Shown here in pieces: positions 17,081 to 49,497 of a DNA stretch of 64,000 nucleotides. The stretch lies in IMG/VR virus record IMGVR_UViG_3300037467_001655; one strand, 5' to 3'. Source of the stretch: a virus. Numbering within the stretch: position 1 is the stretch's first letter; every line of letters begins with the position of its first letter. A model generated the notes under the pieces. The model was not told the origin of the DNA. It worked only from the letters and a program-made list of their open reading frames with translations, and made no database searches. The position numbers and the translations under genes were made by a program.

Positions 17081-17153
17081 TTGACATACACGCAAATGCG
17101 TGTATTGTTGTGGGTGTCAGACGGAATAGCCGTCACCAACCGGAGGAGCCGGA
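17081..17153 (+). promoter_or_regulatory. Early-gene module copy 1: TTGACA-16-TATTGT promoter, operator TACACGCAAATGCGTGTA (17087-17104), double-hairpin leader
   Basis: ttgacatacacgcaaatgcgtgtattgt...gtcagacggaatagccgtcaccaaccggaggagccggaATG. Confidence 0.85.
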
Positions 17154-17534
17154 ATGGACACCCCTATCATCGTCCGCACCTTTTTTCCCGAACTCGATGC
17201 CGTGATAAATCTCGGCCTGGCGCTGCAACATTCGTTCAATCTGCCCGTGGTCGACGCCCTCTACAACGCGATAGCCGTGGTCAGCGACAACGCCCGCGAC
17301 AAGGGAGCACGCGACAGCGACGTCTACGACGCGTTCCACACCGGGCTGACCGGCACCACCACAGTGCCCGGCAACCGTGACGAGGTGATCGTCACCGCCC
17401 ACCTCGCCCGCGCGCTGATCTACATCGACCGCCTGGACTCGATCCTGGCTGTCGCAGCAGCCTTCCCGGCAGCCGTCGCCGCGATCGCCACCACGCCCGA
17501 CACAGCGCAACCGCTCGATATCCTTCGAGCGTGA
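17154..17534 (+). CDS. Hypothetical protein (126 aa, helical) driven by the early module
   Basis: ATG directly after the conserved leader RBS. Confidence 0.8.
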   Translation: MDTPIIVRTFFPELDAVINLGLALQHSFNLPVVDALYNAIAVVSDNARDKGARDSDVYDAFHTGLTGTTTVPGNRDEVIVTAHLARALIYIDRLDSILAVAAAFPAAVAAIATTPDTAQPLDILRA

Positions 17535-17761
17535 GCAGGCGAGGAAAAGACCCCGCAGGGCCAGGCGCGCTGGCCGTCGTCGCCCGGATCCGGGGCGAAC
17601 TCGACCGGCGGGGGATGGACCAGCAGGCACTTGCTGCCGCGATCGGGCGGTCGACCAGCTACGTTTCCACGCGGATGCGTGGTGAGCTGCCTTTCGATCT
17701 GAATGACGTCGAGAACATCGCCATCGTCCTCGAACTCCCGTGCTCGCAACTGATCGGCTGA
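17531..17761 (+). CDS. XRE-family HTH regulator (76 aa)
   Basis: RIRGELDRRGMDQQALAAAIGRSTSYVSTRMRGELPFDLNDVENIA. Confidence 0.85.
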   Translation: MSRRGKDPAGPGALAVVARIRGELDRRGMDQQALAAAIGRSTSYVSTRMRGELPFDLNDVENIAIVLELPCSQLIG

Positions 17762-17768
17762 ATGAGTA

Positions 17769-17800
17769 AGGCCCGGACACCGACCATGGTGTCCGGGCCT
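17769..17800. terminator. Bidirectional hairpin between convergent genes
   Basis: aggcccggacacc/ggtgtccgggcct. Confidence 0.65.
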
Positions 17801-17819
17801 CACTCGTACGCGCGGGATT

Positions 17820-17984
17820 TCAGTCCGATACCGGCGTGACCGTTCCGCCCCCGGCGGCGGTCGCCGCTATCCGAGCCTCCGTCATCGTCAGATACGGCCC
17901 CAACTTCTCCCCGGTCACCGTGGTCACCTGATAGCCAGCGGCGGCTGCCTGGCTCGTACGGCGCCCAGCGCCACATCCACACAT
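17820..17984 (-). CDS. Small conserved head-module protein (54 aa, MCGCG...)
   Basis: Translated by hand: MCGCGAGRRTSQAAAAGYQVTTVTGEKLGPYLTMTEARIAATAAGGGTVTPVSD; ATG overlaps the protease stop; not in the ORF track. Confidence 0.7.
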   Translation of the reverse strand: MCGCGAGRRTSQAAAAGYQVTTVTGEKLGPYLTMTEARIAATAAGGGTVTPVSD

Positions 17985-46965: not shown

Positions 46966-47778
46966 TCAGGCAACCGATTCGTCTTCACAACTAGACACGC
47001 GAACCCGTGTATTGCTCTCTTGACGGTATCGGACCACGTGCCGTTTGGTGATGCCGAGCCGGACCGCTATCTCCTCCGCCGACAACCCGATCCCGGTCAG
47101 GCGCGCGACCTCCCGCCGGCGGTCGTCGGCGCGCTCACGTAACCCGATCCCGGACGCGGCGCCGGACGGGGTGGCGGTGACCCGCGGATCGTCGATGTCG
47201 AGGTCTTCCCAATCCAGCGGCGGGGCCCACAGTTCCTTGCGGGCGTGCTGGCGCGCCAGGTCGTACCGGCCTTCGGTGGCTGGGGTGCCGGACAGTTCTT
47301 CCCACGCGGTGTGGATGGCGTCCCAGGTGTCCCAGGCGATGAGAACGGTGTCGGTGCCCGAGCGGGCGAGCTGCGAAATCGTCGTCTGCGAAACACCTGG
47401 GGTGCGGGCGGCGATGCGTCCCCACGTCCACCCGAGCGCGTGCAGGGCACGCACACGCCGGACGGCACCGACCGCGAGCACGTTGCCCTGGCGCTCGTTG
47501 GGGTGGAAGTCGACGCGCAGGATCGGCACCGCGACGCGGGTGCGGACCGTCTCGTACGCGCCGTGATGGATGTTGAGCACGGTCTTCTTGGTGACCCCGG
47601 CGTCGCGGGCGATGGAGGCGATGGGTAGCCGGAGTTCGAGCAGTCCGGCGATGTGGGTTTGGACGCGTTCGACGGGCATGAAGCCAGGAACTCCGGCGGC
47701 GGCGAGCTGGGCGCGGCCACGTTTGCGGCCGACAGTTTCCATGCGGGTAGGCGTGTAATCGGGGGCGGTGTAGCGCAA
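46966..47778 (-). CDS. Multi-HTH DNA-binding protein with a C-terminal sigma-region-4/LuxR-like HTH
   Basis: VERVQTHIAGLLE, GAVRRVRALHALGWT, WAPPLDWEDLDIDDP, GLSAEEIAVRLGITKRHVVRYR; TTG start with GAGGA RBS. Confidence 0.8.
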   Translation of the reverse strand: MRYTAPDYTPTRMETVGRKRGRAQLAAAGVPGFMPVERVQTHIAGLLELRLPIASIARDAGVTKKTVLNIHHGAYETVRTRVAVPILRVDFHPNERQGNVLAVGAVRRVRALHALGWTWGRIAARTPGVSQTTISQLARSGTDTVLIAWDTWDAIHTAWEELSGTPATEGRYDLARQHARKELWAPPLDWEDLDIDDPRVTATPSGAASGIGLRERADDRRREVARLTGIGLSAEEIAVRLGITKRHVVRYRQESNTRVRVSSCEDESVA

Positions 47779-47785
47779 TTGGTCC

Positions 47786-48271
47786 TCAGAACAGGGGCAG
47801 CGTCGGGAAGGCCGCTGGTGGCCGGCGGCGGGTTCGGGCGGGGTGGATGACGACCACCGATGGGGGACAGGGGATGTCGGCGCGGCGGCGCGCTTCGGCC
47901 AGCTGGTCGATCAGTTGGCCGCGGGAATCCCGCAACCGTTGGTTCTCGCTGAGCAGGCGGTCGATCGCGGCGGGGGTGACGCGGGACGCGCGGGCCTGCG
48001 ACAGGGCTTTGTCGACGGCGGCCTGGGCGGCGAGTAGCCGGGTGGTGAGCACGGCGACGGGTTCGGTGCGCGACATCTGGATGGTGCGACGGGAGCAGTG
48101 CAGCCAGGCGGCGATGGTGTCGGTGGTGTGGCCGCGGTGGGTGAGGTGCGCGACCAGCCACGCCCGGTCGGTCGTCGGCAGGTCGGTTCCCCGAACTCGT
48201 CCGGCGATGGCCGCGTCGATGAGATGTTCGTCGGGATCCCAGCGGGGCTGGTGCAGCGGTACCACGGTCAT
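47786..48271 (-). CDS. HTH protein (161 aa)
   Basis: DRAWLVAHLTHRGHTTDTIAAWLHCSRRTIQ. Confidence 0.75.
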   Translation of the reverse strand: MTVVPLHQPRWDPDEHLIDAAIAGRVRGTDLPTTDRAWLVAHLTHRGHTTDTIAAWLHCSRRTIQMSRTEPVAVLTTRLLAAQAAVDKALSQARASRVTPAAIDRLLSENQRLRDSRGQLIDQLAEARRRADIPCPPSVVVIHPARTRRRPPAAFPTLPLF

Positions 48272-48277
48272 CGGGGT

Positions 48278-48469
48278 TCACCTCCGGGCGTAGGGGGCGT
48301 TGGGGTCGCAATCGTTGGTGGCCAGCGTGCGGCGCAGGTGCGGCTTGCAGACCAGGCACGGGATCGGGTGCGCGGCGTTCCACGGCGACAGCCAGCCTTT
48401 GCGGCAGCGGTTGTGGTGCCACTCGAGCTCGCGGGGCGTGGGGTCGGGGTAGCGGCTGCGGTCGGTCAT
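48278..48469 (-). CDS. Small Cys/His protein (63 aa)
   Basis: HNRCRKGW...PIPCLVCKPHL; ATGA coupling. Confidence 0.65.
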   Translation of the reverse strand: MTDRSRYPDPTPRELEWHHNRCRKGWLSPWNAAHPIPCLVCKPHLRRTLATNDCDPNAPYARR

Positions 48470-49458
48470 GCCGGGGCTGGCTTTCGTGTGCGGGTTTTCG
48501 GTGCGTGTCGGGCCGCTGCGACGGTGAAGCGGCGGGGACGGTTGGCGAGGGCGGCGCGGACGGCTTGCGCGCCGCGGCGGGCGATTTCGATCGCTTCGGG
48601 GTCGTGCAGGCATTTGACGGTTGGTTCGATGAATCCGTCGTTGTCGCACATGCCGCAGGCGGTGATTGCGGCGGTGTCGGCGCGGTGCTTCGCGGCCAGC
48701 TGTTCGCGGTCGGCGGCGTGGGCGTGGGCGTGGGCGGCGCGTTCCTCCCACGCTTTGCGTTCCAACCGGTTCGCCTTGCAGCGACCGCACGGGACGTCTC
48801 CGGGGTTGCCGGGATGGTCCGGGCACCACGGCACTGGTGGTTCGTCCGGATCGGCAGCAGTGGCAGGGATGGGGGTGGGGTTATCCACAGGCGGGGCGGA
48901 CGCCTGGTGACGTACCCCAGAAACGCAACCCCCCTCTTCTGGTTCCTCTGGGTCTAGTTCCCGTGGTTCTAGTTTGGGCGTCAAATCTGTCCCTACCCCC
49001 GGGACAAATGTGTCCCTACCCCGGGGGACAGATTTGTCCCCACCCCCCTCCGGATCGACGCTGGGGGTAGGGACAGATTTGTCCCCACCCCTCGACGGGA
49101 CGGCCGGAGGAAGAGACCGCACTGTGTACAGCGAACTGGTCTGTTCCGGATGGGTAGCCGACTGCTCGAACGAATACGACGGATTCGGGCCGGCACTCTT
49201 CCACCGGGCACGAACTGTCACCGCCCCGGCCGCCGCGAGTTCCCGCAAGGCGCGATCCAGCGTTTTCACGCTCCACCGACATTCAGCGGCCAGCGTCTTT
49301 CGCTTGCACCAGGAAGTGCCGGTGGCATTGTCGGCGTGCTGCCGCAGCACGACATACAGGCGCAGAGCGCGATCGGTGATCAGCTCGCATTCGGTCACCC
49401 ACAGCGGGACCATTGCGAACCGCACATCGACGGAGATGCCGATCTCGTCGTTGCTCAA
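48466..49458 (-). CDS. Replication initiator-like protein (N-terminal winged HTH)
   Basis: TTG 49458 after a leader; FAMVP.WV...ALRLYVVL..HAD...SW..RKTLAAECRWSVKTLDRALREL; internal iterons. Confidence 0.8.
   Translation of the reverse strand: MSNDEIGISVDVRFAMVPLWVTECELITDRALRLYVVLRQHADNATGTSWCKRKTLAAECRWSVKTLDRALRELAAAGAVTVRARWKSAGPNPSYSFEQSATHPEQTSSLYTVRSLPPAVPSRGGDKSVPTPSVDPEGGGDKSVPRGRDTFVPGVGTDLTPKLEPRELDPEEPEEGGCVSGVRHQASAPPVDNPTPIPATAADPDEPPVPWCPDHPGNPGDVPCGRCKANRLERKAWEERAAHAHAHAADREQLAAKHRADTAAITACGMCDNDGFIEPTVKCLHDPEAIEIARRGAQAVRAALANRPRRFTVAAARHAPKTRTRKPAPA
48981..49091. repeat. Iteron-like repeats (GGGACA[A/G]AT[T/G]TGTCCC-ACCCC) inside the initiator gene; putative origin
   Basis: 4 related direct/inverted copies; they encode GDKSVP x2 and GTDLTP. 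Confidence 0.7.
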
Positions 49459-49497
49459 ACCAGCTCCTCTGGTGTGTGACGGCTGGAATCCGTCTTC
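49459..49497 (-). promoter_or_regulatory. Early-module leader copy before the initiator gene
   Basis: gaagacggattccagccgtcacacaccagaggagctggtTTG (compensatory CCAG/CTGG stem). Confidence 0.7.

Follow-up and report, generated by a model that had tools for sequence, protein, structure and literature searches.

A dispersed promoter-operator-leader module in a Nocardia-type temperate phage and its likeness to Aca2-type DNA-plus-RNA control

Among the control systems described so far, the one closest in layout to the element analyzed here is that of Aca2, an anti-CRISPR regulator of the helix-turn-helix (HTH) type that represses a promoter as well as translation of the resulting message. In Pectobacterium phage ZF40, the site bound by Aca2 is an N6-spaced inverted repeat (IR1) between the −35 and −10 hexamers of the promoter, and a second repeat (IR2) lies in the 5' untranslated region (UTR) (PMC6765145). 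Two types of Aca2 RNA motif, 'proteo' and 'actino', have been distinguished; the DNA motif overlaps the promoter, the transcription start site (TSS) is found 10-15 nt downstream of this motif and the RNA motif begins right after the TSS, RNA motifs occur also between genes within operons, and for neighbouring operons the sites come in as many as three DNA/RNA pairs (PMC13551039). Here we analyze a 64,000-nucleotide stretch of viral DNA, IMG/VR virus record IMGVR_UViG_3300037467_001655 (the whole of this stretch is referred to as the window), in which a module that combines a palindromic operator, embedded in a promoter, with a two-hairpin leader enclosing the Shine-Dalgarno (SD) sequence recurs between positions 17,081 and 49,497.

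Two further systems invite comparison. In cluster K mycobacteriophages, an inverted-repeat promoter (ESAS) is followed by an SD-centred 13-mer (SAS) 3-9 bp before the start codon, in 11-19 copies associated with non-structural genes (PMC3203893, PMC11373665); Pope et al. favoured DNA sites as the role of the ESAS repeats (PMC3203893), and the function of SAS is still open (PMC12699233). In T4-type phages, PeSL (promoter-early stem-loop) cassettes, which consist of a promoter and a stem-loop, mediate modular shuffling (PMC2839356).

A covariance model (R1), built from the copies listed in a preliminary description of the window and scanned over the 64 kb with filters off, yielded 11 matches (50.8-66.1 bits; the next best match reached 11.8 bits), and a regular expression for two hairpins plus a start codon, applied to both strands, recovered the same 11 sites and no others. 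The start codons preceded by a leader are at 17154 on the plus strand and, on the minus strand, at 27151, 27671, 28132, 30673, 31230, 35018, 35382, 36793, 46848 and 49458 (the last being TTG). The leaders are 41-47 nt long and consist of hairpin 1, i.e. (A)GACGG, a loop of 5-7 nt that opens with A and closes with G, and CCGTC followed by A(C/A/T); a spacer of 4-5 nt; and the SD hairpin, i.e. CCGG, a loop (AGGAG or, in single copies, AUAGGAG, AACAGGAG or AAUGGAG) and CCGG, about 1-5 nt from the start codon. The minimum free energy (MFE) structure of all 11 leaders comprises the same two hairpins (−12.8 to −14.7 kcal/mol, 57-94% of the ensemble, z from −1.4 to −3.7), with the SD unpaired in each case.

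Seven leaders are located behind a SigA-like promoter, and in these, hairpin 1 starts 3-6 nt from the predicted 5' end. If one mismatch is allowed, the window contains seven occurrences of the palindrome TACACG-N6-CGTGTA, compared to 0.05 expected, and six of these (four perfect, two with one mismatch) lie between the −35 and −10 hexamers of a leader-bearing promoter. In these six predicted promoters, a spacer of 16-17 nt separates a TTGACA-like −35 from a TATTGT or TATATT −10; the operator occupies this spacer and overlaps the −10, and the gap from the operator to hairpin 1 in the window modules is 15 nt. The preliminary description had seven promoters with the inverted repeat wedged between the two hexamers; all seven promoters hold, with the repeat in the spacer of six and detached from the seventh. 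A simple sigma-70 scan recognised two of the seven promoters and flagged the operators as weak terminator-like hairpins; termination as the main function of the operators was rejected given that the stems are 6 bp and are flanked by conserved −35 and −10 hexamers. We are fairly confident that the promoters with their operator are real.

The plus-strand module (17081-17156) contains the −35 TTGACA (17081-17086), the operator TACACGCAAATGCGTGTA (17087-17104), the −10 TATTGT (17103-17108), hairpin 1 (17120-17134), the SD hairpin (17140-17152) and the ATG at 17154, which opens a 126-aa protein of no assigned family; an XRE HTH gene (assigned by Pfam; 17531-17761) lies downstream. The other promoter-bearing modules are on the minus strand. 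The module at 28130-28210 has a promoter with a perfect operator (28185-28202), hairpin 1 at 28155-28169, the SD hairpin at 28137-28149 and the ATG at 28132 (125-aa protein), and that at 31228-31306 has the −35 TTGACC (31301-31306), a perfect operator (31282-31299), the −10 TATATT, hairpin 1 at 31252-31266, the SD hairpin at 31233-31245 and the ATG at 31230 (156-aa protein). The module at 35016-35093, which heads the operon that ends in the Aca2-like gene discussed below, has the −35 TTGCAC, a perfect operator (35069-35086), the −10 TATTGT, hairpin 1 at 35039-35053, the SD hairpin at 35021-35033 and the ATG at 35018 (118-aa protein). One mismatch in the operator is present in the module at 35380-35458 (operator 35434-35451, hairpin 1 35403-35418, SD hairpin 35385-35397, ATG 35382; 74-aa protein) and in the one at 36791-36869 (−35 AAGACA, operator 36845-36862, hairpin 1 36815-36829, SD hairpin 36795-36809 with the loop AAUGGAG, ATG 36793; 66-aa protein). 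The seventh promoter, TTGACA-N17-TAAGTT, belongs to the module at 46846-46924 and retains only the right operator half (TGTGTA), followed by hairpin 1 (46869-46883), the SD hairpin (46850-46862) and the ATG at 46848 (159-aa protein); the detached operator GACACGCGAACCCGTGTA, with one mismatch, is at 46994-47011, about 70 bp upstream of the −35 of this promoter and within the end of the preceding HTH_23 gene.

The remaining four leaders (27151, 27671, 30673 and 49458) lack a promoter and are located inside or behind operons, three of them preceded by GC-rich terminator-like hairpins. All are on the minus strand: 27149-27189 (hairpin 1 27174-27188, SD hairpin 27154-27168 with the loop AUAGGAG, ATG 27151; 161-aa protein); 27669-27710, behind a GC-rich terminator-like hairpin (hairpin 1 27694-27709, SD hairpin 27676-27688, ATG 27671; 156-aa protein); 30671-30715, behind a GC-rich hairpin (hairpin 1 30699-30714, SD hairpin 30678-30693 with the loop AACAGGAG, ATG 30673; a UvrD-type helicase); and 49456-49495, behind GC-rich hairpins (hairpin 1 49478-49494, SD hairpin 49460-49472, TTG 49458; a homologue of replication-initiation proteins). 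Readings of the module as a put-like antitermination element or as an RNase III site were rejected, given that the copies come after, not before, the terminator-like hairpins and that their stems are only 4-5 bp. The persistence of the leader on internal operon genes devoid of a promoter, the compensatory CCAG/CTGG change in the copy at 49459 (in the SD hairpin 49460-49472) and the sequence ATAGGAGCC in the copy at 27151/27152 are all as first described. The total of 12 copies is reduced to 11, and of the leader formula GACGG-N4/6-CCGTCA followed by CCGG-AGGAG-CCGG the hairpins stand and the loop sizes do not, given the 5-7 nt loops of hairpin 1. The supposed twelfth copy, upstream of the ATG at 29186 (180-aa protein), is no full copy: what lies there, on the minus strand at 29209-29235, is a long hairpin of related type, GACGGCCCG-loop-CGGGCCGTC (−23.6 kcal/mol, followed by AC), which has arm ends in common with hairpin 1, comes without an SD hairpin and is not scored by R1.

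Within the window, the stems are near-invariant, so relatives are needed to judge the structure. The leader recurs in seven related Nocardia prophages; the eight elements, including the window, show 51-95% amino acid identity of the large terminase (terL). When complete genomes were scanned with R1, there were 10 sites above 35 bits in Nocardia cerradoensis and 8 in Nocardia panacis, all on prophage contigs, and the remainder of both ~7.5 Mb genomes contained weak matches only. Among 151 sampled Nocardia genomes, 16 had an R1 match at E ≤ 1e-5, and six of these had clusters of 2-14 matches; another 150 genomes, sampled at the family level from outside or around Nocardia, yielded no new leader matches. 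In IMG/VR, the exact leader pattern had 0 matches, and a looser pattern recovered the G031 prophage again along with weak chance matches and nothing more.

An alignment of 86 copies, from the window, the seven related prophages and a few host look-alike loci, shows standard pairs in 749 of 749 stem cells. Two-sided changes affect 5 of the 9 base pairs (31 cells), namely 4 of the 5 pairs of hairpin 1 and 1 of the 4 pairs of hairpin 2. In 500 column shuffles, the observed percentage of paired cells, number of covarying pairs, number of covarying cells and covariation score were never attained, whereas 75 of the shuffles attained the observed value of the fifth measure, further pair types. When 3' partners were slid as a control, pairing fell to 8-58%. 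Eight versions of stem 1 are present (GACGG/CCGTC, GAGGG/CCCTC, GTCGG/CCGAC, GGCGG/CCGCC, GCCAG/CTGGC, GGCAG/CTGCC, GACAG/CTGTC and GACGA/TCGTC), three stem variants coexist in the N. panacis prophage alone, and the change of CCGG to CCAG/CUGG occurred in at least two lineages, i.e. in the window with its orthologue and, independently, in another prophage; altogether, at least eight independent compensatory events were counted. The features that are invariant across diverged phages are the G...C end pair, the A that opens the loop and the purine that closes it, the AC after stem 1 and the CCGG arms. We have little doubt that the hairpins are real and under selection. The coexistence of several stem versions in one phage and the variable loop length disfavour a duplex DNA site of one dimer and favour a hairpin in a single strand, and the fixed orientation and the fixed distance to the start codon point to mRNA as this strand, as the preliminary description had suggested; the covariation it looked to homologous leaders for was found across the related prophages.

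The operator seems to be less constant than the leader. In the promoters of the more distant relatives G031, G089 and G138 (loci L061-L068), the best-kept feature is GTGTGTATAGT, and in place of the left half there is a ACACATGTGT-type palindrome or nothing; the operator geometry seems to drift across relatives while the RNA leader stays. Across phages, the operator half-site and the hairpin-1 arm may also vary together (ACG/CGT in the window, CAG/CTG in G021), with shared cores of 3 nt only; we treat this possible co-variation as a weak lead and not as evidence.

The candidate regulator is encoded at 34180-34563 on the minus strand, by the last gene of the operon that starts with the 35018 module. 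This 127-aa HTH protein belongs to the Aca2/YdiL family: it matches Pfam PF08965 (Aca2_YdiL, DUF1870) with 28.0 bits (cut-off 23.8), and the best matches of a phmmer search against the PDB were four structures of Aca2 (7ezy with the best E of 1.8e-7; 8w35, 7vjo and 7b5j with about 2e-3). The homologue in N. cerradoensis NBRC 101014 is 91% identical and carries the NCBI name of an Aca2/YdiL-like domain protein. By tblastn, an Aca2-like homologue was detected in 7 of the 7 related elements (44-91% identity), always just upstream of the terminase gene, and the order leader, one small gene, Aca2-like gene holds in 7 of the 8 elements including the window; the exception is G138, where 3.7 kb separate the Aca2-like gene from the closest leader upstream of it. 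Among the 151 Nocardia genomes, the Aca2-like homologue is present in exactly the 6 with multiple leader copies and in 0 of the 145 others. Two HTH proteins had been proposed initially as readers of the module, and it is the one at 34180-34563 that pairs one-to-one with the multi-copy leader; the other, the XRE protein at 17531-17761, is less consistent, with homologues in G001 and G002 only, and a Cro-like HTH protein (52417-52659) has a homologue in G001 only.

Between the 118-aa gene and the Aca2-like gene, two long hairpins (34565-34660, minus strand; stems of ~17 and ~12 bp) are present, and the apex of the first contains the operator-like palindrome CACACC-N6-CGTGTG, three mismatches away from the operator. 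Judging by their position and structure, these hairpins are probably an attenuator that sets the dosage of the Aca2-like protein, and the palindrome could be an extra site for the regulator.

Several other genes for DNA- or RNA-binding proteins are found near the modules. The HTH_23 pair at 46966-48271 (minus strand), kept in 5 of the 7 relatives, and the gene of an HTH_31-type protein at 25968-26717 (minus strand) adjoin leader-driven genes. The 161-aa protein encoded at 36987-37472 (minus strand), kept in 6 of the 7 relatives, matches PHROG 645 'Rnase E' (E 2e-15) and, weakly, the sigma-70 region 4 family of Pfam; it counts as an alternative candidate for a partner protein of the module that binds either RNA or DNA.

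Taken together, these observations lead us to favour, by no great measure, the reading of the module as an Aca2-type DNA-plus-RNA control unit expanded into a phage-wide regulon. Computation shows the repeat family, selection on the hairpins, an Aca2-family gene that strictly co-occurs with the leader and a layout in common with ZF40; binding, repression and timing we infer. Copies of the module would be dispersed over the non-structural region of a temperate Nocardia phage, with a DNA layer of seven SigA-like promoters, six of which have the dyad filling the −35/−10 spacer, and an RNA layer whereby each regulated message would carry a 5-bp hairpin near its 5' end and a 4-bp CCGG clamp displaying the SD AGGAG. 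Upon infection, host RNA polymerase would fire the module promoters, and the exposed SD would ensure strong translation. The Aca2-family HTH dimer, made from the 35018 operon behind the two attenuating hairpins, would then bind the operator and shut transcription and would bind both leader hairpins and block the 30S subunit, so that the RNA layer would silence existing messages as well as the promoterless copies reached by read-through; in the lysogen, a low level of the Aca2-like protein would keep the gene set off. Of the two contacts, binding of the operator by the Aca2-like protein is the one we deem slightly better than an even bet, and binding of the RNA leader falls slightly below that mark. 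The combination of a DNA operator and an RNA leader proposed in the preliminary description fits the covarying hairpins, their variable loop lengths and coexisting stem variants, the orientation and position locked to the start codon and the promoterless copies.

A number of observations weigh against this reading. The eight elements are related phages, so that the co-occurrence of the leader with the Aca2-like gene is confounded by common descent, and likewise the 86 copies of the alignment were fitted to the model and many are related by descent, a caveat on the covariation. Other DNA-binding genes, namely the HTH_23 pair (46966-48271) and that of phrog_645 (36987-37472), travel with most relatives, and the left operator half is weak or differently spaced in G031, G089 and G138. 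In a sample of 401 Mycobacteriales genomes, there are two other Aca2_YdiL matches, of which one exceeds the Pfam cut-off and one falls just short of it, and the leader accompanies neither; it is, accordingly, not a general companion of actinobacterial Aca2 proteins. In ZF40, the ribosome-binding site (RBS) is in a stem, whereas here the SD is in the loop of a 4-bp clamp, and the DNA and RNA sites of ZF40 share a TTCG/CGAA core, whereas the operator and hairpin 1 share only ACG...CGT; because the cores and the SD placement differ in this way, it is less obvious that one protein reads both sites. With a replication initiator and a helicase among them, the targets extend past the anti-defence operons so far known for Aca2. 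Finally, the sequencing runs that contain the window are DNA from soil or rhizosphere metagenomes, with no RNA run among them.

For eight of the genes behind a leader, neither Pfam nor PHROG gave a significant match, and the others are the UvrD-type helicase, the replication initiator and the gene at 27671, whose product has only a sub-threshold zinc-ribbon match in Pfam. The initial designation of the set as early host-takeover or anti-defence genes is unproven, with a replication-initiator homologue and a UvrD-type helicase among the members. Comparison of the window with its 89% identical relative, the N. cerradoensis prophage, reveals exchange at the leaders: collinear homology ends 3 nt before the ATG at 27671 and is restored from 27190, where the following leader begins, such that the 156-aa gene (27191-27673 in the window) is swapped for an unrelated 399-bp segment (6933-7331 of locus L075 in this relative), exactly between two leaders. 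In the same relative, the helicase with its leader and the next gene (28582-30753 in the window) are replaced by 840 bp (L075 5226-6065), and in G138, a 69% identical helicase occurs behind its own leader at a different position. Non-orthologous leader copies are up to ~96% identical between phages. The leader copies thus behave also as recombination joints for cassette exchange, which we take to be a consequence of the repeats and not their function.

These exchanges are among the observations on which the main rival of Aca2-type control draws, one that we consider unlikely but take seriously. It holds that the module is a portable expression cassette that works independently of a dedicated regulator: hairpin 1 would guard the message against decay from the 5' end by RNase E/J, the clamp would display the SD, and another repressor (the XRE protein 17531-17761, the Cro-like HTH protein 52417-52659 or the immunity repressor) would read the operator, with copies spreading as recombination joints in the manner of PeSL. 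The placement of hairpin 1 close to the predicted 5' end in the promoter-bearing copies, the unpaired SD of all 11 leaders, the precise gene swap between two leaders, the movement of the helicase together with its leader in G138, the near-identity of copies in different phages and the PeSL precedent for modular shuffling (PMC2839356) are all as expected from such a cassette. Neither stability nor SD display explains, however, the invariant end pair, loop bases, AC and CCGG arms, which point to sequence-specific recognition; homologues of the XRE and Cro-like proteins are confined to one or two relatives, whereas the leader and the Aca2-like gene are present in all eight elements; and the stem-loops of PeSL are terminators, whereas the hairpins described here lie between the promoter and the start codon. 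Aca2-type control is therefore ranked above it.

A link to the host is suggested by look-alikes of the leader upstream of thrS. The E. coli thrS gene is autoregulated by threonyl-tRNA synthetase (ThrRS). Within a clade of Nocardia, seven genomes have one look-alike each in the thrS 5' UTR (29.7-42.5 bits, genome-wide E from 6e-7 to 2e-11), where the sites are orthologous, at about 1501-1550 of the loci L038, L040, L042, L043, L044, L046 and L047, with the arrangement GACGG-loop-CCGTC-AC-N4-CCGG-N6-CCGG and a third hairpin ahead. The phage leader might thus mimic a host thrS RNA element that is read by a host factor, possibly ThrRS, or else the phage regulator might act on thrS as well. The recurrence of the same two-hairpin arrangement at this site in all seven genomes, the tRNA_SAD and class II synthetase core domains encoded by the downstream gene and the lack of any Rfam match at E ≤ 1 on the thrS-type loci speak for this idea; against it, the second loop is not an SD (AACGAG, AGUGAG), the motif is well upstream of the likely start, with reading frames that diverge between species just after it, the loops are unlike the anticodon loop of tRNA-Thr, the thrS leader was not detected at E ≤ 1 in the whole-genome scans of G001 and G002, the two prophage hosts covered at this loose threshold, and the phage stems vary freely (GAGGG, GTCGG and others), so that the identity with thrS may be partly due to chance. 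We accordingly consider mimicry of thrS improbable as an explanation of the module; the look-alike may represent a thrS leader that has yet to be described, or an element of the host to which the leader of the phage bears a resemblance. A similar two-hairpin arrangement without an SD (GACGGACCGAGCCGTCACCACGCCGGAGAAGCCGG) was noticed at the single host or relic loci L048, L049 and G001:C379:8588-8635, and L045 contains a promoter-like TAAGGTAT followed by TGTCAGACGA...TCGTCAC.

The possibility that the inverted repeats are duplex or extruded DNA sites (sites of dimeric proteins, attC-like or other recombination sites) rather than RNA elements survives less well, and we regard it as very improbable. 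Inverted repeats covary on both arms whether they function as DNA or RNA, cassettes are exchanged at the leaders, and DNA sites were the interpretation favoured for ESAS (PMC3203893); however, the spacing of the arms is 5-7 nt in the window and wider in the relatives, which would rotate the half-sites of a duplex, a single phage has several different arm sequences side by side, every copy points in the direction of its gene, ends 2-5 nt from the start codon and encloses the SD, and there is no adjacent integron-type integrase, the only integrase found being a phage-type tyrosine recombinase (53177-54487).

Membership in the SAS/ESAS system of cluster K itself we find scarcely credible, despite the same logic of an inverted-repeat promoter followed by an SD-centred 13-mer with complementary ends before the ATG: with up to 2 mismatches to GGGATAGGAGCCC, the SAS consensus is matched by the 27151 copy only (CGGATAGGAGCCG, 2 mismatches), the other 10 copies being CCGGAGGAGCCGG or variants with more than 2 differences, though similarly placed with respect to the start codon; the ESAS motif (46-47 bp, with imperfect inverted repeats of 15-17 bp) is not matched, the dyad here being 6+6, filling the spacer and unrelated in sequence; and the phage is not of cluster K, the megablast match being limited to 64-74 nt shared with mycobacteriophage RNA ligase genes, the closest terminases (Clawz and others, not cluster-K-type) being 48% identical and the module occurring in no isolated phage of the collection.

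The window is a Nocardia-type temperate phage with a base composition of ~67% G+C and the majority of genes on the minus strand. It encodes the large terminase (terL, 31789-33402), the phage-type tyrosine integrase mentioned above (53177-54487), which adjoins the early region, an Erf-type annealing protein (50272-50904), the 330-aa replication-initiation homologue (48466-49458, minus strand), the 477-aa UvrD-type helicase (29240-30673, minus strand), an RNA ligase (39209-39766, minus strand), and WDGH and DUF2303 proteins. Its nearest relative is the prophage of N. cerradoensis NBRC 101014 (~89% nucleotide identity), which is spread over small contigs, and the N. panacis prophage is more distant; the closest matches of its terminase, at 48% identity, are those of Gordonia phage Clawz and of some mycobacteriophages. 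A megablast search with positions 26000-50000 revealed no DNA-level relatives among isolated phage and plasmid records, the sole nucleotide link being the RNA ligase gene, which is 82-84% identical over 64-74 nt to the RNA ligases of mycobacteriophages Gengar, Waterfoul, Paola and others, and one module compared with phages by blastn gave chance matches only. A single sequencing run, from a soil metagenome, contains nearly all of the window.

If Aca2-type control is indeed what the module exerts, its scale would be new. So far, such control has been described for one to three neighbouring anti-defence operons, whereas here the Aca2 logic would organise a whole set of early or accessory phage genes, 11 genes over 32 kb including promoterless operon genes. 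The copies would provide a natural series of covarying RNA targets for the study of how an HTH protein reads RNA, and about eight small genes per phage would be marked as candidates for anti-defence or host takeover in Nocardia, a genus with few studied phages. The module would also offer a compact, portable promoter-operator-leader cassette for high-GC actinobacteria, and a testable model for the cluster K SAS/ESAS repeats, whose function has been open since 2011 and whose phages are used therapeutically. The boldest version, to which we assign a low probability, is that one Aca2-family HTH protein runs a phage-wide two-layer regulon of at least 11 messages, including those for replication and the helicase and not only an anti-defence island. 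In this version, given the look-alike in the thrS leader, the phage regulator might in addition curb ThrRS of the host, or the host factor that controls thrS might be co-opted by the phage leaders. By analogy, SAS/ESAS may be a regulon of this dual type, acting on DNA and RNA through another protein.

Compared to known systems, the module resembles PeSL in that short repeated regulatory cassettes flank small genes and recombination between copies swaps single-gene modules, which was seen here once cleanly; in PeSL, however, the stem-loops are terminators after the promoter of the neighbouring unit, whereas here the hairpins, including the SD, are part of the leader. In phage T4, RegA represses translation of many early mRNAs. 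As with RegA, one phage protein would shut translation of dispersed early messages at their ribosome-binding sites; unlike the proposed regulator, RegA is not an HTH protein, its sites are unstructured and loosely conserved, and there is no DNA operator layer.

SAS/ESAS was named in the preliminary description as the known analogue of the module. Both are dispersed start-linked 13-mers in one orientation, centred on AGGAG and with complementary ends; about half of the copies are behind a SigA-like promoter with an inverted repeat, only non-structural genes are involved, and the elements are absent from the host genome. In Adephagia, the arms of ESAS overlap the −35 (TGTTGACATGCATACAG) and the −10 of a SigA-like promoter, whereas here the operator fills the spacer; SAS (GGGATAGGAGCCC) follows ~6-8 nt later with no hairpin between ESAS and SAS, whereas here an additional, covarying 5' hairpin is present; and the SAS variants of Adephagia break the GGG/CCC symmetry without compensation, whereas here the stems covary. 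The phage lineages are unrelated, and no Aca2-like gene was found in the right arm of Adephagia. SAS/ESAS thus stands as an analogue and not as the closest known system, the Aca2 layout being closer.

In the acrIF8-aca2 sequence of ZF40, we read TTGCTT, IR1 GTTCGCGATTGCGAAC (TTCG-N6-CGAA), TATAAT, two 5'-UTR hairpins (the second with AGGA/RBS) and the ATG, i.e. the order of parts of the Nocardia module at nearly the same distances. Common to both are an N6-spaced inverted repeat that fills the −35/−10 spacer of a strong sigma-70-type promoter (predicted here) and an Aca2-family HTH gene that closes an operon of small genes with the motifs at its head. The published Aca2 motifs and the module also agree in an RNA motif right after the TSS (its position here follows from the predicted promoters; the gap of 15 nt from operator to hairpin 1 compares with the 10-15 nt published for the TSS), in RNA motifs without a DNA motif between operon genes and, as proposed here for the module, in one regulator for several operons. 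The module sequence is unrelated to that of ZF40, and Rfam 15 returned nothing on the window at the gathering threshold or at E ≤ 10. The contrast in copy number, with 11 RNA sites and 6-7 DNA sites over 32 kb here vs. up to three clustered sites in the published cases, together with the two Mycobacteriales Aca2_YdiL matches that lack the leader, suggests that the Nocardia leader is a distinct variant of Aca2-type control. If the functional steps that we infer are correct, the module is by far the largest instance of the kind of control described between 2019 and 2026.

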